This document shows positions 2,300 through 28,046 of a stretch of 34,261 bases of DNA, one piece after another. Position 1 is the stretch's first letter. The number at the start of each line of letters is the position of its first letter. This stretch comes from an uncultured Thermodesulfobacteriota bacterium (GTDB lineage Bacteria; Desulfobacterota; B13-G15; RBG-16-54-18): the NCBI GenBank assembly GCA_964519535.1, contig CAZFIR010000092.1, positions 1-34,261 on the forward strand. The letters run 5' to 3'. Below the pieces are notes generated by a model that worked only from the letters and a program-made list of their open reading frames with translations, did no database searches and had not been told where the DNA came from. Both the position numbers and the translations under genes were made by a program.

Positions 2300-3472
2300 T
2301 CATCGGTGTTGTGCGGTACAGTCCCGATGTCGTTCTCTTCCCTTCTGTCCGGGCATTATGAGGGATAATAAAATATCTTTGACGTTCTCGGTTTTATGTG
2401 GATGATACAGTCTGTCGGCCCATTCCAACCGATTCATCAACTCTCGGCCAATCTCATGTCCCAACAATTGTTCTTTGTATGTGGTGAAAGAAAAATCTTT
2501 GCTCTTGAGCGCGTGCGCTATGGAGTCGGCTGCTACATGCCCATACCCTAAGCTGAATGAGATCCCCTCACCCCACAAGGGATCAACCCCTGCGGCATCA
2601 CCGACCAGGAGCACCCTGTTGGCCGAGAAGATCGATGCGGGATGAAACCACCTAATTGGCCATCGCTCAATCCGACCTTCATTTAGTGAAATACCCTGCG
2701 CTGCCAAAAACTCGGCGATGATCTTTTTCAGGAGAGGGCCGTCCTTTTGCGAGGTGGAAAAACCGCCCACACCCGTGTTCAGCCATGTTTGGCCATGGAT
2801 TGCCACGGGGAAGGACCAGACATAACCTCGAATCCCATGCCGAAATGTACAAGAGAAATCAATGACTGCTTCCTGCTCTCTCTGTTCAGAAGGGTTCAGA
2901 CTGTCGGCACGCGTCATAAAACGCAGCGTCATGCCAGTGTTCCTTGGGCCCCGTTGCCCAGCGTTTTGGTAAAGCTTTCTGCGTATGATGCTTTGCGCAC
3001 CATCGGCGCCTACTAAAACCCGTGTAGTGAGACTGCGATTGGGAGTTTGCGCAACAATTGCTTCATCGCTGTATGAAAAGGAGATCACGGCCTCGTTCTG
3101 GGCAACTGCAACGCCCAGATCCATTGCTGTGCGGACTAACGTCTCATCAAATTCTTCTCTGATTACCGTCCGCAATCCGCCCCCATCAAGGCAATATTCC
3201 ACATAGCCGTCATCATCAAGGGCGATGCGTGTCCTTTGAACAGTCAAGGATGCTATCGTCATCTTGATGCCAAGGTGCTGTAACCAGTAGTCAGTATATG
3301 CACCAATTCCTCCCCCGCAGATTTTCTTTCGGGGATGGGTTTCTTTTTCCAGTACTATCAGACGATCGCATATTGACGGGAGGAGCTTAGTCAGATGTAT
3401 GGCCGTCGAGATACCGGCAGGTCCGGAACCGACGACGATGCAGTCATATTCTGTTTCTCTCGAGCTGCCCAT
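2300..3472 (-). CDS. FAD-dependent oxidoreductase, geranylgeranyl reductase family
   Basis: GSGPAG Rossmann motif, PRKKICGGGI, GADG, LVGDAAG-DPLWGEGI. Confidence 0.85.
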   Translation of the reverse strand: MGSSRETEYDCIVVGSGPAGISTAIHLTKLLPSICDRLIVLEKETHPRKKICGGGIGAYTDYWLQHLGIKMTIASLTVQRTRIALDDDGYVEYCLDGGGLRTVIREEFDETLVRTAMDLGVAVAQNEAVISFSYSDEAIVAQTPNRSLTTRVLVGADGAQSIIRRKLYQNAGQRGPRNTGMTLRFMTRADSLNPSEQREQEAVIDFSCTFRHGIRGYVWSFPVAIHGQTWLNTGVGGFSTSQKDGPLLKKIIAEFLAAQGISLNEGRIERWPIRWFHPASIFSANRVLLVGDAAGVDPLWGEGISFSLGYGHVAADSIAHALKSKDFSFTTYKEQLLGHEIGRELMNRLEWADRLYHPHKTENVKDILLSLIMPGQKGRERHRDCTAQHR

Positions 3473-3571: not shown

Positions 3572-4471
3572 TCACGAATGTGAGGTCTCTTTGCCAACCT
3601 CCCAAGCCCTTGATGTTAAGGCGTAATGTAGGCTGATATTCTCTATGTCCTTTGCAATTATTTCATCTTCTACAAGGCAAAGGGCGACAGAGATGGGGTT
3701 TAGCTGATATGATTGGCTCAAGATATAATTCAAGATTTGTACGTGGCTGTAGGCCAGGCTAAGCCGACGGTTATTCAGGAGGCGAACAAATCTGGTAGGG
3801 CGTTGCGGATTAAAATGTAATAGACGTCTTCCATCGCCCTCAAAGGAGATATGGAGTAGGTTGGACCCCTCGATAAATACCTGCACCGCATCTCGAAGTT
3901 TGAGCTTGCCCATGAGTGCGGTATTGTTGAAGTCCAGACGGTCAAGGAAAGGATATATCTCTATACTAGTTCTTCCATCGAAATACATATCAATCCCAAA
4001 CGGAAATTCCTCATGGACCAGATAATCGCGGATGCCATCCAGGGGTGGATGTAGCAAGAGGGCCTGATCTATCTTTTCAGGGCATTCCCTGACGATAAGA
4101 TAACACTTGACCTTCGAATCATTCGTGTTCGTTTTATAATCCAGACCTAGGCCTATTGCTACCACCCCTGAGAAGTCGCGGCCATTGTCAGTGATTTGAG
4201 ACAGCATACTATGGTTTAAACGTACGTTTTTACACCGTGAAATTTCGTGGAGAAAATCGTATATTTTTAGAAGGCCTTCTTGGATATCTTGTTGTTCATA
4301 TCCCAACCTGAGCCTTCCCGCATGGATACCTTGGGGGGAGATCTTAACTGAGCATTCCAGTATAGAACAGGGGGGTGTAGATAATAATGCTTCGAACAGC
4401 TGAAAAAAAGTATTATCCTCTAATCCGTACTCTTTTTTATGGAAATCATAGACGAGGATTAATGGGTTCAT
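3572..4471 (-). CDS. LynF/TruF/PatF family peptide prenyltransferase
   Basis: ~300 aa with the motif order recalled for cyanobactin F-proteins: H...LF, ILECSVKI...AGRL, DFSGV..GLGLDYK..DSKVK, PEKIDQAL, GIDMYFDGRTSIEIYP. Recognised by eye. Confidence 0.8.
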   Translation of the reverse strand: MNPLILVYDFHKKEYGLEDNTFFQLFEALLSTPPCSILECSVKISPQGIHAGRLRLGYEQQDIQEGLLKIYDFLHEISRCKNVRLNHSMLSQITDNGRDFSGVVAIGLGLDYKTNTNDSKVKCYLIVRECPEKIDQALLLHPPLDGIRDYLVHEEFPFGIDMYFDGRTSIEIYPFLDRLDFNNTALMGKLKLRDAVQVFIEGSNLLHISFEGDGRRLLHFNPQRPTRFVRLLNNRRLSLAYSHVQILNYILSQSYQLNPISVALCLVEDEIIAKDIENISLHYALTSRAWEVGKETSHS

Positions 4472-4575
4472 GCAGGGGTTATCTCGGTTGCTACATATAT
4501 CAGGAGGAGATGATCCTTCTTGTTGCAGAGCTGAGGCACTTGTCTATTTCATGTCCTCACTCAAGCAACAAAAAT

Positions 4576-4740
4576 CTAGGAAATCTGAGAGGTTGAACAA
4601 GTGGTATTCCAAATCGTCTGACAGTTGTTAGTATACGCACCGCCTCTGGTACTTGATTTGCACAGCTGGAGGATCGCTTCCTCTGCCCTCCCCTTAAACA
4701 ACACGATCAACTTGGGTTTCGTCCAGCGCTTGTTTTTCAT
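4576..4740 (-). CDS. Putative RiPP precursor peptide A (54 aa)
   Basis: Hand translation: MKNKRWTKPKLIVLFKGRAEEAILQLCKSSTRGGAYTNNCQTIWNTTCSTSQIS*. GGAGG RBS; paralog at 5138-5299; lies in an RRE/rSAM cluster. Confidence 0.88.
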   Translation of the reverse strand: MKNKRWTKPKLIVLFKGRAEEAILQLCKSSTRGGAYTNNCQTIWNTTCSTSQIS

Positions 4741-4815
4741 CGTTTATATCCTCCGTCTTTTTTATACTATGAACTGATCGCTTATTGTTGTAGCCAACAA
4801 ACATCTATCTCGTTG

Positions 4816-4843
4816 ATTATATCATATTTTTTATTACATGCAA
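4816..4843 (-). promoter_or_regulatory. Sigma70-type promoter of precursor A
   Basis: Minus strand TTGCAT-16 bp-TATAAT with extended -10 (TGA-TATAAT). Confidence 0.6.
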
Positions 4844-4889
4844 TTTTTTGCCCCAGTTTTTGGAAATCATTATGCCTTGGATTGGGTCC

Positions 4890-5010
4890 CCTATCAAAGA
4901 TTCTGAAGTAGCAAGGGCCCCTCGTTTCTTTATGGGTGTCAGCCCTGGCGTGAGCAGCCTGGCAGAATGAGGTAACCGCTCCAGGTATCTGGAGGGCAGG
5001 ATGAGCGAGC
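4890..5010 (-). pseudogene. Degenerate duplicated 3' end of the radical SAM gene at 5458-6600
   Basis: Translation AHPALQIPGAVTSFCQAAHARADTHKETRGP aligns with the rSAM C-terminus AHASLETGEMDAPIIYFCRVAHARAEALKTAKGP. Confidence 0.7.
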
Positions 5011-5137
5011 TTGTTGCTCAGTTGATGCACTTGTCTATTCCAGGCCCCAACTTGTCCTGCTCCTTGAATTTAAAGTCTAAGGAAAGCAGCCGGAGGTGGC
5101 CCTTTGGCCAGATGTCGCGAAGCGACACAGTAAAAAT

Positions 5138-5299
5138 CTAGGAAGCAGTCTGAGTAGAACATGGTCGACTACCATGCCTACAAGGGTCTTGTTTTGGGCC
5201 AGATACGCCCTGCCACTTACACGACAGAAGTACCGCTTCCTCCGGCCTTCCCTTAAACAACGCTACTAATTTGGGTTTTGTCCAGCGCTTGGTCTTCAT
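5138..5299 (-). CDS. Putative RiPP precursor peptide B (53 aa)
   Basis: Hand translation: MKTKRWTKPKLVALFKGRPEEAVLLSCKWQGVSGPKQDPCRHGSRPCSTQTAS*. GGAGG RBS; leader nearly identical to precursor A. Confidence 0.88.
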   Translation of the reverse strand: MKTKRWTKPKLVALFKGRPEEAVLLSCKWQGVSGPKQDPCRHGSRPCSTQTAS

Positions 5300-5374
5300 C
5301 TTTTTTAATGGCCTCCGTCTTTGATACTATGAACTGATTACTTTTCTGTAGCACTAAGACATCCCATTGTTGTA

Positions 5375-5403
5375 ATTATAGCATATTTTTATCTGCATGA
5401 TAA
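5375..5403 (-). promoter_or_regulatory. Extended -10 promoter of precursor B
   Basis: Minus strand TGC-TATAAT, with TTATCA 17 bp upstream of the -10; same position relative to the ATG as in copy A. Confidence 0.55.
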
Positions 5404-5457
5404 GCAACATTTGGCCCATATTTTTGGGAAGCACTATGCTTTGGGAATAACCCTATG

Positions 5458-6600
5458 TCAGCGCTCCCGAGTCAGCAAGGGGCCTTTTGCTGTCTTAAGT
5501 GCTTCAGCCCTGGCATGGGCGACCCGGCAGAAATAGATAATTGGCGCATCCATTTCCCCGGTCTCAAGTGAGGCGTGGGCAGGGCACCACATACAGAGAT
5601 TGATCAAAGGACATACCCGACACGTCTTTAGAAACTCGTCTCTTTCCGATTGCATTGCCCGCACCTGGGGGATAAAGCATTGCCAGGCATCGGTGAGGGT
5701 CCCTTGTTTCAGGTCATAGACACAATCGGGGTGCCAGACGGATGAGCAGAGGCGAAAAAGGCCGTCGTAGCTGAGGCTGAAACTATCGCTTCCTGCACCG
5801 CAATGGAAGAGGTGGTTACATGTTGTATGGGAAAATTGTTGGTCAATGAGTTTGTCACACCCTTTTTCCAGGGCCTGAAACCGCTCTGGATCAGACTGTT
5901 CCAAGGCTACGATTTCTTCGGGAGAGAGCCTTTCGGCCTTAATCTCAGCATTTCTTACAGGGTTCCCGTCATATCTCAGGTGTAGAAACGGATCAAAGCG
6001 GAAGTAGTCCTTTGTTCTTTCTCTGCAGAAGCGGGCAATCGCCGGCTGTTCATGGAGATTGGAACGCAGGGCCATGGCCTTAAGACGCACGTTCAGCCCG
6101 CTTTTCATGAGGAGCTTGAGTCCTCGACGAAAGGCTGCAAAAGAGCCTGCCTTGCGAGTTACCCCCTCATAGGATTCCTTGCTGCATCCGTAGACCGAGA
6201 CCTCGATATCCCTCGGTGGATACTCCTTGAATAGTTTGATATGCTCTTTTGTTACCAGGGTGGCATTGGTAAAAACCGAGATCAAAAGCCCCTTCTTCTT
6301 GAGGTAGAGATAGATATCGGGGAAATCATCCCTCAGGAGGGGCTCACCTCCGGTGATCAGGCACCACAAGGCGCCGAGGGATACGGCCTCCGTTCCTATT
6401 CCTTGTATCTCTTGCAGAGAGAATTCCTTTTCTTTTGCCTCTTTATCCGCAGCCGGAAGGTTGATGTAACAGTGGCGGCAGTTGTTGTTGCACCGGGCGG
6501 TAATCTCCAGGTCAAAGGAGATGAGCGCTCTTTTCTCTCGCATCTTCTTCCAGAGGGGAAGGTCATGTAAGGCAGCGGATGAAACATACGATTCACTCAC
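5458..6600 (-). CDS. Radical SAM/SPASM peptide maturase (paralog 2)
   Basis: CNNNCRHC, TGGEP; SPASM Cx17C...Cx2Cx5Cx2Cx18C. Confidence 0.9.
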   Translation of the reverse strand: MSESYVSSAALHDLPLWKKMREKRALISFDLEITARCNNNCRHCYINLPAADKEAKEKEFSLQEIQGIGTEAVSLGALWCLITGGEPLLRDDFPDIYLYLKKKGLLISVFTNATLVTKEHIKLFKEYPPRDIEVSVYGCSKESYEGVTRKAGSFAAFRRGLKLLMKSGLNVRLKAMALRSNLHEQPAIARFCRERTKDYFRFDPFLHLRYDGNPVRNAEIKAERLSPEEIVALEQSDPERFQALEKGCDKLIDQQFSHTTCNHLFHCGAGSDSFSLSYDGLFRLCSSVWHPDCVYDLKQGTLTDAWQCFIPQVRAMQSERDEFLKTCRVCPLINLCMWCPAHASLETGEMDAPIIYFCRVAHARAEALKTAKGPLLTRER

Positions 6601-7156
6601 CGGGCCGACTCCTCATAAAAAAACGCACAAAACGCCAGACGGGGTTTAGTAGGGGTAAAAGCCCTTTGCGAATCACGAAGGCTATGATAAAACGATCCGG
6701 GCCGAGGCCGAGAGAGATGTATTTTCCGTTTCTCTCCACCTTAGTCACACGTCCCAAGATTGCTGCCCTGGAGATTAAGCCGTCTCCCTCTGGAGCATTA
6801 TCCCCCTTGGTGAGGTAAGAGCCAGCCTTTTTCCCTATTATTCGATGGATGATGAGCTTGCCGGTATGGGGATGCGTGAAGACCACCACATCACCAAAAC
6901 CGGGGGCAGATGTCTGTACGGGGGTAATGGTGAGGACATCGCCATCCTTGATAAAGGGGGACATACTGAAACCCTTGCCTTGAAACCTGAAGCACGCCCC
7001 CTTACTCAGCACACCTCGCATGAGTTTTTCGAGATGTTGGCTGGGGAGAGATAGTTCCTTTCCTCTCTTAATAACAAGGGCTGGTTTCTCCTGAGCGTCG
7101 TGCAAGGTATGTGATGACGGAGTGTTCATAGTATTTAACACATAACCTAACGGCAC
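6593..7156 (-). CDS. S24/S26 family peptidase (signal peptidase I-like, Ser/His type); start uncertain
   Basis: GFSMSPFIKDGD...GDVVVF...IIHRI...TKGDN..D...ILGRV; no obvious N-terminal transmembrane helix. Confidence 0.8.
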   Translation of the reverse strand: MPLGYVLNTMNTPSSHTLHDAQEKPALVIKRGKELSLPSQHLEKLMRGVLSKGACFRFQGKGFSMSPFIKDGDVLTITPVQTSAPGFGDVVVFTHPHTGKLIIHRIIGKKAGSYLTKGDNAPEGDGLISRAAILGRVTKVERNGKYISLGLGPDRFIIAFVIRKGLLPLLNPVWRFVRFFMRSRPGE

Positions 7157-7171
7157 ATAAAGAACGGGTTA

Positions 7172-7480
7172 TTACGAAGAGGCTTCAACGATCATCTTCC
7201 TCTTGAGGAGTTCTTCTGCAAGCCCGATGACATCCTTCTCGATCTCGTCGGGCGGCGCCTCATATTCTGCAGAGAGCTCGTCTGCTACCGCCTTCAAGCT
7301 CTTTTTGCCGTCCAGCTTTGCCCAGATGGCCCTTCCGGTTTCATTCAGGGTAAAGAGTTCGTCCTCCATATCCCCCATGCCGGCAACCAGGGGGACGATG
7401 ATGAGTTCTCCCTCAATCTCCCGGCACACCAGGTCCGCCGACGGGCAATAGGCGGCATCAAAGTTGACCTTTGTTTTCAT
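7172..7480 (-). CDS. Stand-alone PqqD family protein (RiPP recognition element)
   Basis: 102 aa, REIEGELIIVP...LFTLNETGRAIWAKLDG...L...Y....IEKDV...L; GGAGG RBS. Confidence 0.92.
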   Translation of the reverse strand: MKTKVNFDAAYCPSADLVCREIEGELIIVPLVAGMGDMEDELFTLNETGRAIWAKLDGKKSLKAVADELSAEYEAPPDEIEKDVIGLAEELLKRKMIVEASS

Positions 7481-7529
7481 AAAGACCTCCTTACATAGTT
7501 ATCGTATGGCTCGAGACCAAATCACCTTT

Positions 7530-8333
7530 TCATGCAGACAGAGGTGAATCAGAAGGGGTCTTCCTTAGCACTGTCCCTCCTATCAATATCTCTTCCGCGA
7601 TGCGGAGGTGTATCACCTCAAATCCACCCTCTGCAAATTCCGACTTGACCTCATCCTCTTGTGAGAAGGCGTGGATGAACTCTATATTGTTTGAGAGCGT
7701 ATCACCCTTTTCATACCAGAGATTACCCAATGTGAAGAAGGCAACGACCTTTCTGACAAGCTCCCATAGATGTGCAGGTCCATCCTTTGTAGCCCAGCGG
7801 AACTGGCATATGAAATATCCCCCAGGTTTAAGGGCCTTGCCGATCCTCTGGAGCATCTCTACACGCCTGCCCCTGGTGGGGACGCAGGAATACATGGCTG
7901 CAGAGAGCCAGGCGACGTCGTAGGCCTCCGCAGGCACGTCAATCTTGGAGATTTCCTGAACAAGCCCTTCCATCTTCACCCCGTGGCGGCCAGCATTCTC
8001 CTTGGCCTTCTCGACCAGCGCGGGGACAAAGTCAACACCCGTTACCGCAAAGCCCATCTGTGTCAAGGGAATGGCCTCCCTTCCACCTCCCACACCGAGG
8101 AGGAGGAGTCTGCCTCCTGTTAGGTGAAGCCTCGCCAGAAGAGCTTGCTCATCGGGATGCAGGATCGGGTACGCCAGGTCTTGACGGCCACAGTCCTCCA
8201 CCATCTTCTCTCTTGCATAGGTTTGCCGACTGAACTCCACCAAATCATTGGGCCTCATCACCACAACGGCCAGAGACTGTATAAAACGACCAAAACGAAT
8301 CAGAAAACGTCCGAAGAGGATCCTCGGTCTCAT
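7530..8333 (-). CDS. Class I SAM-dependent methyltransferase
   Basis: LLLGVGGGRE motif I variant, VTGVDF, LKPGG. Confidence 0.85.
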   Translation of the reverse strand: MRPRILFGRFLIRFGRFIQSLAVVVMRPNDLVEFSRQTYAREKMVEDCGRQDLAYPILHPDEQALLARLHLTGGRLLLLGVGGGREAIPLTQMGFAVTGVDFVPALVEKAKENAGRHGVKMEGLVQEISKIDVPAEAYDVAWLSAAMYSCVPTRGRRVEMLQRIGKALKPGGYFICQFRWATKDGPAHLWELVRKVVAFFTLGNLWYEKGDTLSNNIEFIHAFSQEDEVKSEFAEGGFEVIHLRIAEEILIGGTVLRKTPSDSPLSA

Positions 8334-8377
8334 GGTTTCACTTTGATTTCCTGCTTTTTTTCATTGCGGCTTAGATA

Positions 8378-9613
8378 TCAACTCTTCGTGTAAGACCTGG
8401 CTACCGCATGGCTTGTCTTCGGGCTGGCAAGCTTGCCATCTGAAAAGTTTTGTATCCTTTCTTCCCAATCATCTATCTGCCAGGCTCGCTCGCCTTCGTC
8501 AAGCAACCCCAGGGCCCGCGCCTGCGCGTGCGCGATCTCGCAGTGATACTCTACCCGGGTATCCAGCGTTCCATGTTCCATCCATGACCGGGCTGGGCAC
8601 TGTTCGCAGAGGCCCTGCAAAAAACAGTGGGCACAGCGGGTGAGGTAGTCGTGGTTGTCGGTCTGTATCTTTCTTATCCTCGGAAAAAAATTTATCAGGG
8701 CATCTTTGAGCGAGCCTCTTTTTAGATCGTACACTGTGTCTGGGTGCCTCAGCAGCATGCACAACTGTAGATGTCCATAGGCATCCACGCATCCGCTCCT
8801 TACCCCTGCTCCACAGGAGAAGATGTTGCTCCCCGAGGGCCTGGTAAACTGAGAGCAGAACTCCCGCATCTCTTTCAGATATTCTTCGCGACGCCTGAAA
8901 AAGAATGCTACTGCCTCATCAGGTGAGAGTCTGAGCTTCTTAATAGAAATATTCTTTTGCCGGGAGTCGCGGCGAGCGCGAAGATCAAAAAAAATGGAGT
9001 AGGAAGTCACTGTATCCATCCAGGGGATGGTGGAGGCCCACGATTCAAACTCCTCTGTTTCTTCTCTGTTTGGTGGAAGAAGCGCGCCTTTGACCACAAA
9101 AGGAACCTTTTTCTCTAACAGCAAATGTATCCCTCGCCAGGCCGCTTCGAAAGAACCCGAAACCCTGGTAACAGACTCATAGGAACTCCTTTTCATCCCA
9201 TAGAGGGTGACCTCGATAGGCTGAAGAAGCGGGATGCGTGTAAATACCTTGGAGAGGGCGGGAGTGATCAACGTGGCGTTGGTAAGAAGGATCACGCGCA
9301 GGCCGAGTTTTCGGGTAAAGATGTAGAGGTCTTCAAAATCTTTTCTCAAGAGAGGTTCACCTCCCGTGAACCTCACTGTCAGACAGCCTAAGGAAGCAGC
9401 TTCTTGCAGAATCTCCTGTATCTCCTTTGTCGAGAGTTCCCGTTGTTGGGCATTAAGATCTGCCGCAGGCAGATTGATATAGCAGTGGATGCAGTTGTTG
9501 TTGCAGCGTTCAGTTAGCTCCATGTCAAGCGAGTCGAGAGCGGAAGCGTTACCTCTCCGCGGGGAGACCTCATCGGCCCTTATTTTAACGGCATAAGAAT
9601 CTTGATTGCCCAT
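8378..9613 (-). CDS. Radical SAM/SPASM peptide maturase (paralog 1)
   Basis: CNNNCIHC, TGGEP; SPASM CGAG...C...CAHC-x5-CEQC-x18-C; clear paralog of 5458-6600. Confidence 0.9.
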   Translation of the reverse strand: MGNQDSYAVKIRADEVSPRRGNASALDSLDMELTERCNNNCIHCYINLPAADLNAQQRELSTKEIQEILQEAASLGCLTVRFTGGEPLLRKDFEDLYIFTRKLGLRVILLTNATLITPALSKVFTRIPLLQPIEVTLYGMKRSSYESVTRVSGSFEAAWRGIHLLLEKKVPFVVKGALLPPNREETEEFESWASTIPWMDTVTSYSIFFDLRARRDSRQKNISIKKLRLSPDEAVAFFFRRREEYLKEMREFCSQFTRPSGSNIFSCGAGVRSGCVDAYGHLQLCMLLRHPDTVYDLKRGSLKDALINFFPRIRKIQTDNHDYLTRCAHCFLQGLCEQCPARSWMEHGTLDTRVEYHCEIAHAQARALGLLDEGERAWQIDDWEERIQNFSDGKLASPKTSHAVARSYTKS

Positions 9614-9664
9614 TATTTTTCGACCCTAAATGCAAAAAAAAGTCAGGGATCAACATCAATATAG

Positions 9665-10672
9665 TTACAGGTGCCTTAAAAGGTCTATGACGTCGCCATC
9701 TTTAGTAAAGTGGAGGAAATAACAGGGGACTTCATGGGCAATCCGGTCCACCAAGGCAAGCATCTGCTCCCACCAATCGGCCGTGCCCAGGGGTTTTATC
9801 AGGCAGGCCAGGAGCATTCCGATGATCTCTTGCTTGTGATCAAGGGGCATGAGACGGTTTTCCCTGTCCTGCTTCAGAAAAAGAATGGCCTTTAATGGGG
9901 CGGCGTCTGCCGAAACATCAGGGACATCACCGTGACTCCAGGTCCCGTGGATTTTGAAGCCCTTTGGCCATCGTCTGACAATTATTCGGTCATCGCACAG
10001 GACCTTTGCTTTATCCTGCAACATCATTACCATGGTGGACTTGCCTGCATCCGAATGACCGACGAAGAGTATGCCCTTGCCGTCAAGCACCACGCCGCTG
10101 GCATGGATATAACAGCCCTCCCTGTCGGCAAGAACCCTGGCAAGGAGGATCTGGTCGGTGGGAAAGAGGGTGAGGGAGTGGAGGTTGCCCTTGCGAAAGG
10201 CCCTTTCCGTTTTGTTGTAAACCTTGATATCGCTATAGTCATGGTTAAATACCGCGAGTTGGTGGATGTTGCTTTCTATAACAGAGCCTGAAGGGGAAGA
10301 TCCCATTTGTTTTGATTTTTGGCGAGACCTTTGATATAAGCGGTGCCGTATTCTGGGCCACAGACGATTAATCGCGCCCCCCACATCCCCTGAAATCCCG
10401 GCGTAGAACCAGGAAGCCCCCTTTTTGTAAATGGCCCAAGGGGGCTTGCGATAGACCTCTTTTCCTATATCCCAATTGCGTAGATCCGGTATGGAGAAGT
10501 GATGTCTGATGGTAATGGTATCCTTCCCCGGTCTATTCACCTCGAAGTGTTTAAACTTGGGATGGAAGGTGGTATCTGTTATGGGCAAATCCGCTTCCAG
10601 TCTGATGGTGATACCGGCAATGTGATAGTAGCGGTGGTCCAATGCCTGAGTTTTTTCCGCCATCCTTTGCAT
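9665..10672 (-). CDS. HprK-related P-loop kinase-like protein
   Basis: IHASGVVLDGKGILFVGHSDAGKST...VLCDD: His, Walker A and DD arrangement typical of HPr kinase-like domains. Confidence 0.72.
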   Translation of the reverse strand: MQRMAEKTQALDHRYYHIAGITIRLEADLPITDTTFHPKFKHFEVNRPGKDTITIRHHFSIPDLRNWDIGKEVYRKPPWAIYKKGASWFYAGISGDVGGAINRLWPRIRHRLYQRSRQKSKQMGSSPSGSVIESNIHQLAVFNHDYSDIKVYNKTERAFRKGNLHSLTLFPTDQILLARVLADREGCYIHASGVVLDGKGILFVGHSDAGKSTMVMMLQDKAKVLCDDRIIVRRWPKGFKIHGTWSHGDVPDVSADAAPLKAILFLKQDRENRLMPLDHKQEIIGMLLACLIKPLGTADWWEQMLALVDRIAHEVPCYFLHFTKDGDVIDLLRHL

Positions 10673-10740
10673 TCTCCCCTATTGTTAGCTGAGGCCGGCT
10701 ATTTACATTTAATGTCTTAAAAATTATGTAATTTGTTACA

Positions 10741-10769
10741 ATTTTATCACATAATTTGCTTGACTGCAA
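10741..10769 (-). promoter_or_regulatory. Sigma70-type promoter of the RiPP maturase operon, overlapped by a 9-bp inverted repeat
   Basis: Minus strand TTGCAG-17 bp-TAAAAT with TG extension; AAATTATGT (10721-10729) / ACATAATTT (10749-10757) inverted repeat. Confidence 0.55.
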
Positions 10770-10836
10770 GGCGTGCAAGAGTCAACAGGTCAACCAACGC
10801 AAAATGATCTCACCCGTCTTCCATTCGTGACCTTGA

Positions 10837-11667
10837 TCACGCAAGGGCATCCTTCAGGAGCTTAAGGCACTTCTTCAATCTATCGCCGATAATCTTGAGG
10901 GAGATGCCCTGCGGGAAGAATATTTCATTCAAGGCCGCGCTCTTTTTTTTCGACTGGAAAAGAAAGAGGAGGTCGCCGAAGTTCTGATTGGACTTTCCCC
11001 CCTTGATCCTCTTCAGAATCCATCGCTCTCCAAAGGAGAGGTTTCCATTCCAGGATGGGAAGAGGTCCGAGCGTAGGAAGCTGAGATAATACAGTGTCCG
11101 CTCCGCCCCCATCTTTTTGGCCTCGGAGAGTATTGCCTCGTCGGAGAGCCCATAGTATTCTTTTATCCGCTTCAGATCCTCCCATCCCATCTGAGAGCCG
11201 AAGGAGTGGCTCTGGAGGTGGATAGCGGTGGAGATGAAGAGGTGTGTGGGGCAGGGTATCTTGACCTCCATGCCTTCCAGTTTTATGGTGATGCTCCTTT
11301 CAAAGACATCCTTGACGGAAATCGTGAGACAGGAGCGTTCAAGGATGGTGCGGGAAGGATTGAGGAAGGAGGTGTGTAGGTCGAGGAGAAGGCCTGGCTT
11401 ATCGAAGACCCCCGGCTCTATCTCCTCAAACCCCATCCCTTTCAAGCCCTTTTTGAGCAGTGCAATATCCCTTTCCCGGACCAAGACGTCCACGTCGAGC
11501 ATTCCCCGATCCCCCAGAGAGGGGTAGACATCGCCGAGGAGGCTTACCCCTCTGAAAAAGAGGACCTCAGGTCCTTTCTTTTTCAGGCCCTCGATTACTT
11601 CTTTGAGGTGGTGGATGGTGATGAGATTTTGGGAGGCCGTTGCATAAAAAGAGATTGCCCTTTTCAT
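10837..11667 (-). CDS. Nucleotidyltransferase family protein (NTP_transf_5-like)
   Basis: FRGVSL..VYP..GDRGMLDVDVLV...LDLH...HLQSHSF; start ATG at 11667 overlaps the GT4 stop (ATGA). Confidence 0.8.
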   Translation of the reverse strand: MKRAISFYATASQNLITIHHLKEVIEGLKKKGPEVLFFRGVSLLGDVYPSLGDRGMLDVDVLVRERDIALLKKGLKGMGFEEIEPGVFDKPGLLLDLHTSFLNPSRTILERSCLTISVKDVFERSITIKLEGMEVKIPCPTHLFISTAIHLQSHSFGSQMGWEDLKRIKEYYGLSDEAILSEAKKMGAERTLYYLSFLRSDLFPSWNGNLSFGERWILKRIKGGKSNQNFGDLLFLFQSKKKSAALNEIFFPQGISLKIIGDRLKKCLKLLKDALA

Positions 11668-12791
11668 CTGGTGTTTTCTACGACTTGATGGTAGATATCG
11701 AGGGTTTTCTGAAGGCATACGTTCCAGTCGAAGAGGGTCTCAACCCGCCTTCTGCCTTTTTTCCCTATCTGTTTCCTGAGATCGGGCGCATTGATGAGCC
11801 GGATAGTTTCCTGCGCAAGAGCTTTTGTATCTTCGGGCTTTACCAGGATGCCTCCCTCACCCACCACCTCGGGCAGCCCCCCTACAGACGTTGCAATGAC
11901 GGGCTTGGCAGAGGCCATGGCCTCTACAGCGGCTAGGTTGAACCCGTCATTGAGGGATGGAATGATAAGGAGATCAAGGGCGGCGATGACATCGGGGATG
12001 TCCTTACGGTGGCCCACAAAGTGAAAATGAGGTAGCCCCTGTGTTTTTTTGATCAACTCCTCTTTCATGGGGCCATCCCCTGCCATGATGAAGTGGGTCT
12101 GGGGAAGGGTGCGCCCTATGCTCATGACCGCCTCGACAAAGAGGTGAGGTCCTTTTACCTCCTCCAATCTCCCCACAAAGCCCACGAGAGGAACCTGCCT
12201 TTTTATCTGTAATTCATTCCTTACCTTTTTTTCATCGCCAGGAAACCGTTGCAGATTTATTCCATTAAAAATGGTGACCACCTTTTTCGCGTCGCCGATT
12301 CCCCTCTTCAGGTATTCACGGCGTTCGTCTTCGGAGATGGTGATGATCCTGGCACAGAATCGGGCAACCAGTTGCTCGAGCAAGACGTAGAATCGCTCTT
12401 TTCCCTTTTCGAAATATCCGTAAAAGAGGTGGCCGTGGGGGGTATGTATCGTCCTGGTGCGGGTCACTCCCCCTGCCACCCTCCCCAATACCCCCGCCTT
12501 GGTGGTATGGGTATGCAGGAGTGTTGGTCTCTCTCGGCGGATGAGGGCAATGATCTCGAAGAAGGCAAGGAGATCATGCACAGGAGCGATATCGCGGCGC
12601 AGATGGGGTAGGGGATGATAGGGTATGTGAAATCTCCGGGAGAACTGTTGTGGGTCTTCCTCGGGCTGGCGGGAGGGTCCAGAGGCCATGACGATATCGA
12701 CCCCCTGTTGCTTGAGGCCTTTGAGCAGTTTTAGAAATATCCAGGGTGCCCCGCCCTGATCCAATCTAGTTATCAGGTGTAGGACCTTCAC
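11664..12791 (-). CDS. Glycosyltransferase family 4
   Basis: VLHLITRLDQGGA, LHTHTTKAG, GRLEEVKG, DGFNLAAVEAMA. Confidence 0.9.
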   Translation of the reverse strand: MKVLHLITRLDQGGAPWIFLKLLKGLKQQGVDIVMASGPSRQPEEDPQQFSRRFHIPYHPLPHLRRDIAPVHDLLAFFEIIALIRRERPTLLHTHTTKAGVLGRVAGGVTRTRTIHTPHGHLFYGYFEKGKERFYVLLEQLVARFCARIITISEDERREYLKRGIGDAKKVVTIFNGINLQRFPGDEKKVRNELQIKRQVPLVGFVGRLEEVKGPHLFVEAVMSIGRTLPQTHFIMAGDGPMKEELIKKTQGLPHFHFVGHRKDIPDVIAALDLLIIPSLNDGFNLAAVEAMASAKPVIATSVGGLPEVVGEGGILVKPEDTKALAQETIRLINAPDLRKQIGKKGRRRVETLFDWNVCLQKTLDIYHQVVENTR

Positions 12792-13837
12792 CCGCCCTTT
12801 TCTCTCTTCATCCTGCGGGTGGCCGCTATCTCCAAGATCGTCGCAAAGGAGAGGATGGCCAGGGCCTGCAGGAGGAGGACCCAGAAGTAGTCCGGGGCCA
12901 TCTTGATCAACAGGGCGTTCATCCCCAAGGCGATGGCCAGCAAATAGATGGTGAGCACCGTCTTGGTCTTGGATCCCAAGAGGTAATGGAGACGGTGATG
13001 GAGGTGGTCCTTTCCCGTGTACTCGAGAAGTTCTCGTAGGCTACCAACTTCCCTCATGATGATCCTGCGCAGATTGATATAGGCCATGTCGTAGATGACC
13101 ACGGCGAAGATCAACAGGGGGGCTGCGAGGGACGGCAAGAGCATCATCTCCGACCATTCGGCCAAGACCGCGAGAGAGGCAATGACGAAGCCTAAGACGT
13201 TGCTTCCGGTATCACCCAAGAAAATGGTTGCCCCCTTTTCCCCTCGAAAGTTATAGGGGAGAAAGCCAAGGCAGATGCCGATGATCATCAAACAGATGGG
13301 CAGCATATGGGACGATCCCATCTGGAGAAAGATGATGGAGAAGAGAAGGGCGAAAATAATGCTGAGACCTGCCGCCAGTCCATCCATGCCATCTATGAAG
13401 TTGACAGCATTGGTAATCCCCACAAGCCAGAGAACCGTCAGTGTGTAATTGAGGGTTGTACCCCACAGGGTCTTGGGGAAGATGACAATCGATACACCGA
13501 AGGCGATGAGGATGCCGGCAGCAGCAATTTGGGAAAGTAGCTTGGCTACAGCTGGCAGCTCTCTGGTATCGTCCCAGATTCCCACCACGAAGATGAAGCC
13601 CGCGGCGATGAGCAGACCCAAGATTTCCCCCTGTGGTTTTGTGAGCACGATTGCTGATAGGATGAACGAGATGAAGATGGCCCACCCGCCGGTCTTGGGC
13701 GTGGGGACGGTGTGGACCCGGCGCTGCTCAGGCATATCCATGATACCCCACCGTGTTCCCAACCATCTCGCCAGGGGGGTGAGAAGCAGCGAGAGAAGCA
13801 AGGGCATGATGAGTGCCGCGAAGAATTCTTTAACCAT
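12788..13837 (-). CDS. MraY/WecA family polyprenyl-phosphate sugar-1-phosphate transferase
   Basis: DMP..RRVH..PTP..GG, GIWDD, NAVNFIDGMDGL, FLGDTGS, HLHH; multiple hydrophobic segments. Confidence 0.92.
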   Translation of the reverse strand: MVKEFFAALIMPLLLSLLLTPLARWLGTRWGIMDMPEQRRVHTVPTPKTGGWAIFISFILSAIVLTKPQGEILGLLIAAGFIFVVGIWDDTRELPAVAKLLSQIAAAGILIAFGVSIVIFPKTLWGTTLNYTLTVLWLVGITNAVNFIDGMDGLAAGLSIIFALLFSIIFLQMGSSHMLPICLMIIGICLGFLPYNFRGEKGATIFLGDTGSNVLGFVIASLAVLAEWSEMMLLPSLAAPLLIFAVVIYDMAYINLRRIIMREVGSLRELLEYTGKDHLHHRLHYLLGSKTKTVLTIYLLAIALGMNALLIKMAPDYFWVLLLQALAILSFATILEIAATRRMKREKGG

Positions 13838-13842
13838 GCAGA

Positions 13843-14895
13843 TCAGCCTTTCATAGCATTCATGGCCCTGCCGAGGTGCTCGGCGGCATACCGTACCTCC
13901 GCAGCATTGAGGTGGGGATAGATGGGGAGGGACAATGCCTCGGAGAAGGCCTTGTCGGTGATATCGAAGCCCCCAAGGCCGAGATATCGATGGAGAGGGG
14001 AAAAGACCGGCCGTTGCGCCTCGATACCGTTCTGATGCAGATTCTCTAAGATCGTCTGTAACATCCCCTTTTTTATCTTTACTACATAGCGATAATATAT
14101 GCCCTTTTGTGTGGGTAGCACGACCCCCTCAAGGCCGCCCAAATGCTTTTCGTACCATTGGGCCCGTTTCTTTCTTTCTTTAAGAAAGGAAGGGAGTTTC
14201 GCAAGCTGTAACTGGCCCATCCTTCCCTGTAAATCGGTCATGCAATAATTATACCTTGTTTTGTACTCATCTTTTTTATCATATTCACGCATATCCCGCA
14301 TTTTTTCCAGCAGTCCCTCATTCCGGGAAACCGCCATCCCCCCCTGACCGGTGGTAATAACCTTGGTCGCGTAGAAGGAGATCATAGCTATCTCACCCGC
14401 GGTCCCCGTCATTGTTCCGTGGCATGAAGCACCGAGCGATTGGGCGCAGTCCTCTATGACAGGCGGTCCTAAAGCAAGAAAATCATCCATGTTTTCAACG
14501 GGATGCCCAAACATGTGTGGGATGATAATTGCAGCGGTCTTTTTTGTGAGGGCCTTTCGTGTCGCGGCAAGGGAGATGTTCATCTGCTCTTCATCGATAT
14601 CCACTACCACGGGCGTTGCCCGGCAATAGTTTACGGCGTTGAGGAGGGCGCTGCAGGTAAAGCTGGGGATGATCACCTCGTCCTCCGCTTTGATACCGAG
14701 CGCCAACAGGCTCAGGTGTAAGGCAGCGGTTCCTGATGAAGTGGCGACCCCCCCCCTGAGGCCCAGGTATGAGGCCATCTCCTGTTCAAACCTTGCTACC
14801 TCCTCGCCGGTGGCGATCCTTCCTGAGGCGAGGACTTCCCGGAGGCCGCGAGCCTCCTCGTTGCCCAGAGTCGGCATAGAATGGGGTATTTTCAT
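13843..14895 (-). CDS. DegT/DnrJ/EryC1/StrS family PLP-dependent sugar aminotransferase
   Basis: SSGTAALHL, IEDCAQS, SFYATKVITTGQGG, LSLPIYP. Confidence 0.92.
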   Translation of the reverse strand: MKIPHSMPTLGNEEARGLREVLASGRIATGEEVARFEQEMASYLGLRGGVATSSGTAALHLSLLALGIKAEDEVIIPSFTCSALLNAVNYCRATPVVVDIDEEQMNISLAATRKALTKKTAAIIIPHMFGHPVENMDDFLALGPPVIEDCAQSLGASCHGTMTGTAGEIAMISFYATKVITTGQGGMAVSRNEGLLEKMRDMREYDKKDEYKTRYNYCMTDLQGRMGQLQLAKLPSFLKERKKRAQWYEKHLGGLEGVVLPTQKGIYYRYVVKIKKGMLQTILENLHQNGIEAQRPVFSPLHRYLGLGGFDITDKAFSEALSLPIYPHLNAAEVRYAAEHLGRAMNAMKG

Positions 14896-15503
14896 GGTAG
14901 GAAGTAGCGGAGGGGGGCGAAGCCTTCGGCGAAGGTTACTCTGGCCAGCGTACCGCGGAAGCGGGCCGTTGCGATGGCGATGTCTACGATATTGGAACCG
15001 GGGATGTTGGTCTTATGCAATTGGGAGGTGTGGGCCTCCAGACATTTGATCTTTTTCTCCAATGTTTCCTCGATGTCTGCGAAGATCAGGGGATTGAAGC
15101 CGATGGACGTGGGGGTTTCGTAGAAGATGACGTTGGGGGTATACCTGGTAGCGGAGACGGCAGCCTTGGCGAGACGGACGTGATCCTGATGGGTGTCCTC
15201 GGGGTAGTTCACCATTACCAGCGAAGGCTGCACATCTCGCAGAAATCCCTCCAGCAGATCTATCAAGGGCTTATCGAAGATGATGAGGGTGTCCTGATAC
15301 CCTCCCCAGAGCAGCTTTTGTGCCCCCATGATCTCGGTGGATATCTCCTGTTCTCTTTTTCTTACCTGAGGATCACCTCCCATGGCCCCATCTGCAACCA
15401 CCAAGAGATATACTTCATTGTCCTCCTGGCTGTATTGAGCGAGGGAACCTGCGCATCCAAACTCGATATCGTCGGGATGAGCCCCGATAGCTAATACTTT
15501 CAT
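14892..15503 (-). CDS. PIG-L/LmbE family deacetylase
   Basis: AHPDDIE, R..E, DTHQDH, HTSQ. Confidence 0.9.
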   Translation of the reverse strand: MKVLAIGAHPDDIEFGCAGSLAQYSQEDNEVYLLVVADGAMGGDPQVRKREQEISTEIMGAQKLLWGGYQDTLIIFDKPLIDLLEGFLRDVQPSLVMVNYPEDTHQDHVRLAKAAVSATRYTPNVIFYETPTSIGFNPLIFADIEETLEKKIKCLEAHTSQLHKTNIPGSNIVDIAIATARFRGTLARVTFAEGFAPLRYFLP

Positions 15504-16183
15504 ACCTTACCCTCCAAGACGTTCAAAGAATCCGGGCCACAATTGAAAAGGAGATCAAGGAGTGACAGATTGGGGATAAAATCACCATAAAGTTGCGGGT
15601 AGACAGGGTGTTTAAATTCCTGGAATATCACCGTAATCTCCTTTTGATGGAAGGGTTCGAGATGGAGATATTCTCTTCCCCCAGCCCCGGAAAGATAGGT
15701 GTCAGCCCCCAAGAATTCACAGATGGCGGCAAGTCTCTCGGAAGGCTCCTCTGGGAATTCCTCCAGCTCAGAGGCAACTTTTATCTCCCGCTGCACCCCC
15801 AACATATTCAGGAGCAGAAGGACACCTGCTCTATTAACCTCTGAGAGCGATGCCGCATCGTGTGCGTAGAATTCTTCCAACGATGGGAAGAGGCCGCGAC
15901 AATAAGGGGCCTTTTGATAGTTGATTTCCAAGGCCCTGATGTGCTTCTTCCGCCAATCCACCCTGTTGTTGATTTTCACCTCATCGATGTGCTCAGGATA
16001 CTTGTACGACACGGGTACGGTGAGCCACATCCACCCCTGGGCCGTCTTTATTTTATTTCTGTTTTGAAACTCATTCTTCTTAAACTGGACAGTATCGAGG
16101 AAGACAAAGATATCACTCCTAACGATCTTGTCAAAATACCCCAACCACGGCATAAATTGTGGTTGATGTATAGCCACGATCAT
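15500..16183 (-). CDS. WbqC family protein
   Basis: IHQPQFMPWLGYF, DTVQF..QNRNKI, YLSGAGG, YPQ..F.PNLS.LDLLFN.G. Confidence 0.92.
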   Translation of the reverse strand: MIVAIHQPQFMPWLGYFDKIVRSDIFVFLDTVQFKKNEFQNRNKIKTAQGWMWLTVPVSYKYPEHIDEVKINNRVDWRKKHIRALEINYQKAPYCRGLFPSLEEFYAHDAASLSEVNRAGVLLLLNMLGVQREIKVASELEEFPEEPSERLAAICEFLGADTYLSGAGGREYLHLEPFHQKEITVIFQEFKHPVYPQLYGDFIPNLSLLDLLFNCGPDSLNVLEGKV

Positions 16184-16205
16184 GTTAGAAAATTAACAGA
16201 AAAGG

Positions 16206-16562
16206 ATGAAGAGATCAAGGGAGCTTTTCGGACTTTTACTTTTTATTGGATGGGTTGTCTTTTTGACCATCTTTTCCCTCATTCCCCTAGAAGGGGTAGA
16301 TCTGGGGGGGCAGCGGGATAAGGTCGCCCACTTTATTGCCTATTTTTTTACCGCCGTCTTGTTCTATGTTGCCTTTCGCACCCGTTTCAAGCCAGCCGAC
16401 ATCTATGCAGTGTTCTTCTCCTTCGGCTATGGGGCGCTCATAGAGTTGGCGCAATCGCTGGTGCCGGGCAGGGAATGTTCTCTCGGAGACTTGGCGGCCA
16501 ATCTTTCGGGGGTGCTCTTTTTCTTTGCCCTGTATCGCGTATTGTGGGGAAAGGTTAGTTAA
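16206..16562 (+). CDS. VanZ family membrane protein
   Basis: DKVAHFIAY...IELAQ..VPGR.CS.GDL.AN..G. Confidence 0.85.
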   Translation: MKRSRELFGLLLFIGWVVFLTIFSLIPLEGVDLGGQRDKVAHFIAYFFTAVLFYVAFRTRFKPADIYAVFFSFGYGALIELAQSLVPGRECSLGDLAANLSGVLFFFALYRVLWGKVS

Positions 16563-16632
16563 TCGTCTCTCTTTTTGTTGATGAGCTCCATAAATATATT
16601 TGTAATCAATGATGACAATTTTAGTAAAAAAA

Positions 16633-16649
16633 GTGACAATTAATGTCAC
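16633..16649. promoter_or_regulatory. Palindromic transcription-factor site (candidate enhancer/UAS)
   Basis: GTGACA-ATTAA-TGTCAC; a weaker TGACAATTTTAGTAA lies ~20 bp upstream. Confidence 0.45.
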
Positions 16650-16925
16650 CCTATTGCTCTCCAGTCGAATATCCTTCTTTAGTTCGCCAGTAAAATCAAA
16701 GGGATTCATAGGACTCAACCTACAAACGAGGTACATATTTTTCAAGGCGTCGAAAGGTTAGAGCGTTTTTTTGTAAGAATCTCAACCTCCCTGCCCCTGT
16801 AACTGAGGAGGTGCACCTGTTGTTCCTTGTTTGCATCTTTTTTGTTGCAAGTGGCCCTTCAGCCCCTCGCGTATCCGTTTAGGGTAATGTTGCCCGAGTT
16901 CTTAATGTGTGTCAAAAATCATTTT

Positions 16926-16941
16926 TGGCAAATAAATTGCA
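16926..16941 (+). promoter_or_regulatory. Sigma54 (-24/-12) promoter of the polysaccharide operon
   Basis: TGGCAAATAAATTGCA: GG (16927-28) and GC (16939-40) at the canonical spacing, ~200 bp upstream of the 17148 start. Confidence 0.55.
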
Positions 16942-17147
16942 GATAATTATCTAGAAAATGATTTCTTTAAAGACCAGGAGCGCTACAAACAGGTGAGGTG
17001 GAAATCCTTTGTATTTTATATTATAATATGTCACCATAAATAGAAGAGCAGGTGTGATGTTGAAAGAATTTTTGAAAAAAAGTCTTTTTTACGATGTTAT
17101 GAAGGGGTGTTTCTCAGGGGGGCACGGGGACACTTGTGAGGTAAATT

Positions 17148-19603: not shown

Positions 19604-19607
19604 GGAT

Positions 19608-23120: not shown

Positions 23121-23351
23121 ACGGCATTTCTATTCCCTCGATACTTAATTCTTATTTTACTTTGAGATGATTGACTCCGAGATAAAAAGAGGAAGCTCTA
23201 AAAAAATGTACTGGGTGGAACAAGGGAGATCTCTCTTACAGCATACAAGCAAGTATATGGGAGTGTCGATAAGATTTATCCTCATTCCTTCCAGCCTAAG
23301 CCATTTAGGCAGTAAGAATTTTGGTATTCGATTCAAAGTGATGCAAACTCT

Positions 23352-27401: not shown

Positions 27402-27406
27402 ATAAT

Positions 27407-28039: not shown

Positions 28040-28046
28040 AAAGACA

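Follow-up and report, generated by a model that had tools for sequence, protein, structure and literature searches.

The 34,261-nucleotide stretch considered here (contig CAZFIR010000092.1 of assembly GCA_964519535.1, from an uncultured Thermodesulfobacteriota bacterium; called the window below, and WIN where it is set beside other loci) carries on its minus strand a single long co-oriented run of genes, from a WbqC gene (16183) to the gene for a geranylgeranyl-reductase-like flavoprotein (2300), and this run includes an apparent ribosomal-peptide cluster (Table 1). The analysis centers on two neighboring genes of the run. One, at 9665-10672, encodes a ScmC-type protein with an HprK/PEPCK fold in which the active-site set is kept; the other, at 10837-11667 and separated from it by a 164-bp gap, encodes a nucleotidyltransferase of family PF14907 (NTP_transf_5). 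The two peptide precursors (5138-5299, ending in STQTAS, and 4576-4740, ending in STSQIS) share the leader MK.KRWTKPKL..LFKGR.EEA.L..CK, and both have Ser as their last residue. A preliminary description of this DNA had pointed to the terminal Ser residues, to an HprK-like first maturase gene and to an adjoining, co-oriented NTP_transf_5-like gene translationally coupled to a GT4/WecA/DegT sugar operon, and all of these observations hold.

Related loci (given L numbers) were collected in two ways. Set 1 comprises 80 loci, one genome per species, scanned with the kinase-like family; since it was thus seeded on the kinase-like gene, a set 2 of 79 metagenome-contig loci was built on the leader motif alone, from a 14-row precursor alignment. 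Maps of their open reading frames (ORFs) reveal a conserved cassette of a ScmC-like gene, a first radical S-adenosylmethionine (SAM) enzyme of the SPASM type (radical SAM/SPASM A), a PqqD gene, an archaeal-type signal peptidase (S26), a second radical SAM/SPASM enzyme (B) and anywhere from one to more than ten precursor genes. The set-1 hosts belong to many phyla, including Methanotrichaceae and Methanomicrobiales; a cultured host is Desulfobotulus alkaliphilus ASO4-4 (L081), where the cassette is accompanied by a PF14907 gene, an ABC exporter and a Bac_transf gene.

A profile search of set 1 yielded 103 complete precursor ORFs in 64 loci, 84 of them ending in Ser and 12 in Thr (96/103), and several of the seven others look degenerate. 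The 125 complete precursors of the leader-seeded set 2 end in Ser 87 times and in Thr 33 times (120/125); the five exceptions include two spurious high-GC ORFs and one apparent read-through. Set against the 0.161 that Ser and Thr together make up in the remainder of the tail, the set-1 count has a binomial tail of 4e-67, a figure that treats the precursor rows as independent, which they are not fully. Conservation of the terminal Ser/Thr is far beyond chance. The last Cys generally stands six residues before the end (Cys-x5-Ser/Thr in 81/96 precursors of set 1 and 107/120 of set 2), positions -6 to -2 vary freely, and there are 102 distinct last 12-mers. The leader has the family consensus WxKPxL...EExVLxxCK, its aromatic residue being Trp in 209/211. 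After the CK motif the share of Ser plus Thr is at most 0.35 at any position, and since no other Ser or Thr is conserved there, the last residue is the sole conserved hydroxyl group of the family. L004 (11007-18642), L124 (5229-12676) and L160 (5405-10336) contain arrays of 7 to 12 precursor genes whose cores differ greatly and which all keep the common leader and the Cys-x5-Ser/Thr end.

A ScmC-type gene is present in 13/16 of the set-2 loci of at least 12 kb, and its misses in the shorter ones are mostly contigs whose start falls within the cassette. L118, L123 and L160, three precursor-seeded loci longer than 16 kb, have the usual Ser-ended precursors and no ScmC-like gene detectable by profile; in L160 an ORF of 669 amino acids lies directly upstream of the precursor array. 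Many of the ScmC-like ORFs (42/87) reach at least 560 amino acids, long enough for a radical SAM fusion, and all of the long forms scanned against Pfam (8/8) have an N-terminal Radical_SAM domain. In these scanned forms the ScmC-like part is the C-terminal half of a protein of roughly 650 amino acids; long ORFs occur in L004, L009, L017, L018, L039, L042, L048, L054 and others. The fused N-terminal domains are closest to enzyme B of the window in 41/42 cases, with a median of 182 bits against 49 for the window's third such enzyme, radical SAM C (1081-2244); enzyme C was considered as the split-off partner of these fusions and rejected for that resemblance to B.

By sequence, the window protein resembles HPr kinases only distantly. 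Hpr_kinase_C (PF07475) matches it with an E of 0.004 (17.1 bits, cut-off 33.3) and the HPr kinase model TIGR00679 with 24.4 bits (cut-off 240); its best named NCBIfam match is ScmC TIGR04249 (E 1.7e-10, 40.8 bits, equivalog cut-off 125), a model that 51/53 relatives match (best E 1.1e-13) and 0/53 match above the cut-off. The best named NCBIfam matches of the PqqD protein and of both radical SAM enzymes of the cassette are likewise Scm models (ScmD TIGR04248, ScmE TIGR04250 and ScmF TIGR04251). As the Scm equivalog scores all fall far below their cut-offs, the kinase-like family is a sister group of the database-defined SynChlorMet (SCM) cassette, which it also resembles in its setting of two radical SAM/SPASM genes and a PqqD gene, and not SCM itself. 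Among 2572 candidates examined, 1021 homologues were found at E <= 0.001; all 120 homologues among the matches listed carry PF27840, P0035 among them, to which 71% of the query aligns with 100% identity. In the Atlas, where PF27840 bears the name ScmC, the nearest clusters have that same label. Searches of the accessible literature found no publication on the SCM cassette or on the present radical SAM family.

The likeness to HPr kinase/phosphorylase lies in the fold and in the His, P-loop and Asp-Asp set. The conserved residues are His190, the P-loop G205-H-S-D-A-G-K-S-T213 and C226-D-D-R229; H190, G205-T213, D227 and D228 do not vary among 19 sequences, and across 53 their conservation is 90% or more. 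The family profile aligns to Coxiella HprK (3tqf) across the His, the P-loop and the Cys-Asp-Asp stretch (PDB E 0.034). An AlphaFold2 (AF2) model (pLDDT, the predicted local distance difference test, 88.2) matches ATP-dependent PEPCK at E 9e-8 and HprK/P (1ko7, 1knx, 1jb1) at E 2.5e-5 to 7e-5. Differences lie in the sub-cut-off scores, in a dissimilar N-terminal half and in the setting, a peptide cluster rather than carbon catabolite control. The gene is the sole ScmC-like copy in the 2.44-Mb genome. From residues, fold and setting we infer a kinase activity, with the last Ser or Thr of the precursors as the candidate target; a predicted complex of the protein with precursor 1 scored 0.23 against a mark of 0.32, a figure that speaks neither for nor against such a target.

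The same protein might instead be an ATP-binding helper of the radical SAM enzymes, or might phosphorylate a small molecule, a sugar or a lipid carrier, with the terminal Ser/Thr kept for the radical SAM cross-link, for peptidase recognition or for export. The many ORFs of fusion length, with their Radical_SAM domains wherever scanned, would suit such a role, as would the better match of the model to the small-molecule kinase PEPCK than to HprK/P, a weak match to the FomB phosphonate kinase in one of the 53 family members, and the precedent of the linear polyphosphorylated peptides (LPP), whose kinase has a target other than the C-terminus (PMC13381572). We think this unlikely, though deserving of attention, in view of three points: the characterized HprK-like proteins of peptide clusters are, in the papers cited here, all peptide Ser kinases (PMC8498205, PMC6993621, PMC13381572); the only conserved hydroxyl residue in 228 precursors is the last one; and kinase, NTP transferase and RiPP recognition element (RRE) occur together as in the lasso and LPP systems.

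The strict Cys-x5-Ser/Thr spacing, the tolerance of Thr as last residue and the fusions, which would place the kinase-like domain at work at the cross-linking enzyme, also fit a reading in which phosphorylation is transient. Activation of the last Ser/Thr would then serve either the loss of its phosphate, which leaves a dehydro residue, or some other reaction at the C-terminus, and a ring would be closed by the Cys that lies six residues upstream, much as class II-IV lanthipeptide synthetases phosphorylate and then eliminate. No lyase or cyclase domain was found, however, among the window ORFs scanned; radical SAM/SPASM enzymes are already natural makers of thioether links; elimination beside a free carboxylate would be chemically awkward; and the recurrent nucleotidyltransferase would be left without a role. 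We accordingly assign this scheme a rather small chance.

The nucleotidyltransferase assignment is secure at the family level, PF14907 matching with an E of 3.8e-22 (79.5 bits, gathering threshold 31.2) over profile positions 48-248 of 249, so that the first 47 positions are missing. The window protein, of 276 amino acids, is a short form without the N-terminal stretch of about 75-100 residues present in forms of 370-440 amino acids, and is 13-24% identical to the 23 long relatives (367-436 amino acids) of the related loci. Its G...DxD motif is intact (G40, D58 and D60, invariant in 27 sequences). A model with pLDDT 87.4 has weak PDB neighbors (best E 1.9e-3, TM to target about 0.6), all of the nucleotidyltransferase fold and including MenT1, ANT(2'') entries 4xje and 5cfs, and LnuA. 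This too is the sole copy of its family in the genome, 164 bp from the sole ScmC-like gene. A homologue search restricted to proteins of 764-2180 amino acids, and hence weak evidence, gave no fusions such as one of B2 protease and nucleotidyltransferase. For PF14907 the literature searched lists one paper, which deals with phosphonates.

Linkage of the PF14907 gene to the cassette recurs. A search with the single sequence found it in 15/81 loci, and a profile made from those matches found 35 ORFs in 33/81 loci, the family assignment being confirmed for 27/27 of the ORFs scanned (27 of the 35). Where the contig extends beyond the core by at least 1.5, 3 or 5 kb on both flanks, it is present in 23/33, 17/25 and 11/14 loci. 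Gene counts near the core (within 3.5 kb, 321 kb in all) and far from it (5-10 kb, 136 kb) were compared in 78 loci, after removal of L002, L003 and L010, near-duplicates of the window; 29 PF14907 copies are near and 0 far. Its position varies: it may lie upstream of ScmC, directly after radical SAM B, after the reductase gene (L015, L106), or in divergent orientation. Such counts, the flank-corrected presence and the varied positions argue that the cassette, across phyla, often has the nucleotidyltransferase as an accessory member, which is neither a mere sugar-operon gene nor a local import. The idea in the preliminary description that a tailoring module had been transplanted onto a radical SAM peptide therefore does not hold, the ScmC-type protein being fixed in the cassette and often fused to a radical SAM domain and the nucleotidyltransferase being frequent across phyla; kinase-like protein, nucleotidyltransferase and terminal Ser/Thr together are instead an old, ancestral and conserved feature of a large family.

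In the window itself the nucleotidyltransferase gene is joined to a sugar operon. Its start codon overlaps the stop codon of the GT4 glycosyltransferase gene in an ATGA of 4 nt, also present in L010, and genes for a WecA-like enzyme, a DegT aminotransferase, a PIG-L deacetylase and WbqC lie upstream on the same strand, so that the nucleotidyltransferase is predicted to be translated with the sugar genes. The 164-bp gap beyond it (10673-10836) holds a promoter-like TTGCAG, 17 nt, TGaTAAAAT and an inverted repeat, TGTAAcaaaTTACA, that could be an operator, and it is better conserved than the flanking coding ends among WIN, L010, L003 and L002. A promoter and terminator scan of 4300-17300 found no terminator-like site on the coding strand of the gap. 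Over its whole length that scan does no better than shuffled sequence (for promoter-like sites 14 against 10.8 +/- 3.1, for terminator-like sites 13 against 14.8 +/- 4.3), and only the conservation of the gap between species carries weight. Because the gap is conserved together with its promoter-like site and inverted repeat, the peptide operon probably has a regulated promoter of its own. Other promoter-like sites (10 of 12 matches, from the same scan that is not above shuffles) lie just upstream of each precursor gene, at 5375-5403 and 4869-4897 on the minus strand, the former with an extended -10 TG.

This arrangement could be taken to mean that the nucleotidyltransferase is part of the sugar operon alone, where it might, for instance, make or modify an activated sugar, and that its place beside the peptide genes is an accident of synteny. 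The ATGA overlap and the conserved promoter-like site between the two genes speak for such a reading, as does the close kinship of WIN, L003 and L010, which share their outer flanks. We hold this to be very unlikely. PF14907 genes stand beside the cassette with no adjoining sugar gene in many loci, for example directly after radical SAM B in L040, L042, L051 and L067; in L015 and L106 the sugar operon is upstream and the PF14907 gene at the opposite, far end of the peptide cluster; and none of the copies counted above is far from the core. To our knowledge, moreover, PF14907 is not the sugar-1-phosphate nucleotidyltransferase family.

The association with sugar and polysaccharide genes nevertheless extends beyond the window. 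L015 and L027 are only 45-58% identical and have different outer flanks, yet WbqC, PIG-L, DegT and WecA genes still lie directly upstream of ScmC, as they do in L106 and L108; in L127 the genes for GT4, WecA, the nucleotidyltransferase and ScmC follow one another. In other phyla a Wzz/tyrosine-kinase-type co-polymerase gene adjoins ScmC or the nucleotidyltransferase gene in 7 loci, Wzy_C occurs in 6 loci (in 5 within 3.5 kb of the core, and in L016 within 4 kb), Bac_transf initiating transferases lie near the cassette in 4 loci, and in L016 GT4 genes flank the nucleotidyltransferase gene. At least one of PNPT, Bac_transf, Wzy_C and Wzz is found within 3.5 kb of the core in 18/78 loci. The near versus far enrichment of single families is modest (PNPT 3 vs 1, Wzy_C 5 vs 1, Wzz 7 vs 1, Bac_transf 3 vs 0); the density in the window's own genome is a stronger contrast, as 3/9 of its matches (PNPT 3, Bac_transf 3, Wzy_C 2, Wzz 1 in 2.44 Mb) are inside the window, namely one PNPT, one Wzy_C and the sole Wzz. 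The link is thus recurrent but partial. The preliminary description had said that its proposal would fall if the terminal Ser were not conserved in homologous precursors or if there were no conserved linkage with nucleotidyltransferase or polysaccharide genes; since the terminal Ser/Thr is conserved and the gene linkage recurs, neither objection applies.

These neighbors also raise the thought that the last Ser/Thr is glycosylated directly, with no phosphate, by a Wzy_C-type O-oligosaccharyltransferase drawing on a lipid-linked glycan started by the WecA-like enzyme. Glycosylation of the C-terminal Ser of pilin in Pseudomonas aeruginosa 1244 is a model for this, and the Wzy_C genes within 3.5 kb of the core in 5 loci, the window's own copy (21765-23120), and the initiating transferases (WecA-like or Bac_transf) whose genes immediately precede ScmC in several loci would all agree with it. 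Wzy_C is present in a minority of loci only and weakly enriched near the core, and the conserved kinase-like protein and nucleotidyltransferase would go unexplained, so that we see hardly any likelihood in such a route.

Table 1. Features of the window, with positions on the 34,261-nucleotide stretch
Feature	Position	Strand	Remarks
Radical SAM/SPASM C, third such gene, convergent	1081-2244	+	kept in close relatives L003 and L010
Geranylgeranyl-reductase-like flavoprotein	2300-3472	-	
LynF/TruF/PatF-like peptide prenyltransferase	3572-4471	-	TIGR04445 106.6 bits, below cut-off 140
Precursor 2, 54 aa	4576-4740	-	ends C-STSQI-S
Precursor 1, 53 aa	5138-5299	-	ends C-STQTA-S; WxxP leader, three conserved Cys
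Core maturation genes, whole run	5458-9613	-	
Radical SAM/SPASM B	5458-6600	-	
Archaeal-type signal peptidase I (S26)	6593-7156	-	TIGR02228 sigpep_I_arch 52.8 bits, cut-off 51.85
PqqD-type RRE	7172-7480	-	PF05402 at 2e-16
Methyltransferase	7530-8333	-	
Radical SAM/SPASM A	8378-9613	-	
ScmC-type protein (probable PF27840), HprK/PEPCK fold, 335 aa	9665-10672	-	candidate peptide Ser/Thr kinase
164-bp intergenic gap	10673-10836	-	between nucleotidyltransferase and ScmC-type genes
PF14907 (NTP_transf_5) nucleotidyltransferase, 276 aa	10837-11667	-	short form
ATGA overlap	11664-11667	-	nucleotidyltransferase ATG (11667-11665) on GT4 TGA
Sugar genes, whole run GT4 to WbqC	11664-16183	-	
GT4 glycosyltransferase	11664-12791	-	last sugar gene before nucleotidyltransferase
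WecA-like polyprenyl-phosphate HexNAc-1-P transferase	12788-13837	-	co-oriented sugar gene
DegT aminotransferase	13843-14895	-	co-oriented sugar gene
PIG-L deacetylase	14892-15503	-	co-oriented sugar gene
WbqC	15500-16183	-	co-oriented sugar gene
AAA_22+HD_5 protein	17148-18887	+	first gene of divergent polysaccharide locus
Poly_export/SLBB	after AAA_22+HD_5 gene	+	divergent polysaccharide locus
Wzz/GNVR/tyrosine-kinase-type co-polymerase	19608-21764	+	
Wzy_C	21765-23120	+	
Polysacc_synt flippase	23352-24884	+	

From 17148 onward the plus strand encodes a complete Wzx/Wzy-type polysaccharide locus, divergent from the sugar and peptide operon. This locus (17148-32027) also has three methyltransferases, a hexapeptide acyltransferase and several glycosyltransferases, to about 32 kb; over about 25 to 31 kb its G+C is 0.32-0.44, compared with about 0.50 elsewhere in the window, which suggests that part of the glycan is variable or acquired. 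Near the cassette in the distant loci L031, L064 and L067 there is again an HD_5-domain protein, which in the window is fused to AAA_22. The prenyltransferase and geranylgeranyl-reductase-like genes, which follow the precursor genes, are clade-specific additions, shared with L002, L003, L010, L015, L087, L089, L097, L104, L106, L107, L109 and L115, and hint at a prenylated peptide in the window's clade, its prenyl chain then being reduced. Specific to the window is the combination of a shortened nucleotidyltransferase, coupled to GT4/WecA/DegT/PIG-L/WbqC genes, with the prenyltransferase and reductase, all adjoining a full polysaccharide locus.

Several published systems invite comparison. In lasso peptides such as paeninodin (PadeK) and pseudomycoidin (PsmK, PsmN), HprK-like kinases phosphorylate the C-terminal Ser of the precursor, and PsmN is required for the one or two hexoses found on the phosphate of pseudomycoidin (PMC8498205, PMC6993621). 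The window shares with them an HprK-like kinase candidate and precursors ending in Ser, and with pseudomycoidin a DxD protein of nucleotidyltransferase fold; the ANT(2'') entries 4xje and 5cfs, PDB neighbors of our model, are the ones that Zyubko et al. named for PsmN (PMC6993621). Its scaffold differs in being of presumed radical SAM/SPASM origin, and neither a lasso cyclase nor a B2 protease is among the 28 window ORFs scanned against Pfam (a scan that left four ORFs at 28.9-34 kb outside). In rumen lasso clusters an "uncharacterized nucleotidyltransferase", an HPr kinase, GT2 and EpsH are reported to co-occur (PMC7533575). Going by that term, used in PMC6993621 and PMC7533575, PsmN may itself be a member of PF14907.

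A close parallel is with the Bacillota LPP (Popov et al., Nat Commun 2026, PMC13381572; genes LppA/K/B/S/D/N), whose clusters are embedded in capsular polysaccharide loci that include a tyrosine autokinase and whose kinase puts several phosphates onto Ser3 of the core. The pairing of kinase and nucleotidyltransferase on a non-lasso peptide is therefore not new but already in print. LPP and the present family alike are non-lasso, with an HprK-like kinase, an NTP transferase, a discrete PqqD-type RRE and, as leader peptidase, a signal peptidase of archaeal type, and with a [Y/W]xxP leader motif; four of the five LPP gene families, and the polysaccharide setting, are common to the window cassette. 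An ABC exporter belongs to LPP and an ABC transporter lies near the core in 22/78 related loci, but the window's cluster has no MsbA-like exporter gene among the scanned ORFs. There are other differences. Two or three radical SAM/SPASM enzymes and conserved Cys mark the present core, whereas the LPP product is linear and is described with no other core-modifying enzyme; the kinase-like protein is here of the ScmC type and often fused to radical SAM; the leader is WxKPxL...EExVLxxCK here and YxxPxVLxHQxIxFETxxS in LPP; the conserved hydroxyl is that of the last residue and not of a core Ser3; and the hosts are Desulfobacterota, Omnitrophota, Acidobacteriota, Chloroflexota, methanogens and others, in contrast to LPP and paeninodins, which the authors of that paper describe as restricted to Bacillota (PMC13381572).

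In the reading we prefer, both genes encode tailoring enzymes of a conserved ribosomal-peptide pathway in which the last Ser/Thr is phosphorylated and then decorated in a nucleotidyltransferase-dependent way; on present evidence we lean towards it, with modest confidence. The PqqD protein would bind the WxxP leader of the precursors and the radical SAM/SPASM enzymes would cross-link the three conserved Cys. With ATP, the ScmC-type protein would place a phosphate on the hydroxyl of the invariant Ser (in some precursors Thr) that closes the chain six residues past the final Cys, and the PF14907 protein would act on that phosphate, either adding a nucleotide, to give an activated phospho-peptide, or attaching a sugar, as reported for PsmN; the signal-peptidase-like enzyme would remove the leader. 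In the window's clade the likely source of any attached group would be the WbqC/PIG-L/DegT/WecA/GT4 operon or the adjoining polysaccharide locus. The tailoring of a terminal Ser proposed in the preliminary description thus stands as a hypothesis, supported by the conserved end, the conserved active site and the gene linkage, without its transplanted module.

Several points weigh against this scheme. The sequence likeness to HprK is weak, both in Pfam and in PDB comparisons, and under curated thresholds. The PF14907 gene is missing from 10/33, 8/25 and 3/14 of the loci with flanks of at least 1.5, 3 and 5 kb, and as about a quarter to a third of sufficiently flanked loci lack it, it is not essential. 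As the LPP kinase has Ser3 of the core as its target instead of the last residue, action at a C-terminus does not follow for an HprK-like kinase from its place next to a signal-peptidase-like enzyme; LppK is reported to have rejected Thr (the S3T variant), and here 12/103 and 33/125 precursors end in it; and deletion of lppN is described as without visible effect in the heterologous host (PMC13381572). The Cys-x5-Ser spacing, finally, could serve the radical SAM cross-link or peptidase recognition instead. That spacing and the Ser3 precedent keep the rival readings alive.

A further step can be imagined, in which the phospho-Ser/Thr of a radical SAM cross-linked (in the window's clade probably prenylated) peptide is the handle by which it is joined to polysaccharide. 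The nucleotidyltransferase would make a nucleotide-diphospho-peptide, in the way that choline phosphate or glycerol phosphate is activated for transfer to cell-wall glycans, and WecA/GT4 and the Wzx/Wzy system would attach it, or build a glycan on the phosphate. This is speculative and we would give it only a slim chance; if true, the products of the cassette in many anaerobic phyla would be conjugates of peptide, phosphate and glycan that belong to the cell envelope or the biofilm matrix.

If the phosphorylation and decoration of the last residue are borne out, a terminal phospho-Ser tailoring seen in a few lasso peptides and in the LPP of Bacillota would extend to a much larger, unstudied group of radical SAM peptides, spread over Desulfobacterota, Omnitrophota, Acidobacteriota, Chloroflexota, Chlorobiaceae and methanogens. 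The precursors of this family have a signature (WxxP leader, three Cys, terminal Cys-x5-Ser/Thr) that makes the product predictable for mass spectrometry. And as the cassette recurs beside polysaccharide-assembly genes, here as in the Bacilli described for LPP, whether such a peptide may be joined to, or may regulate, capsule or biofilm polysaccharide becomes a testable question.

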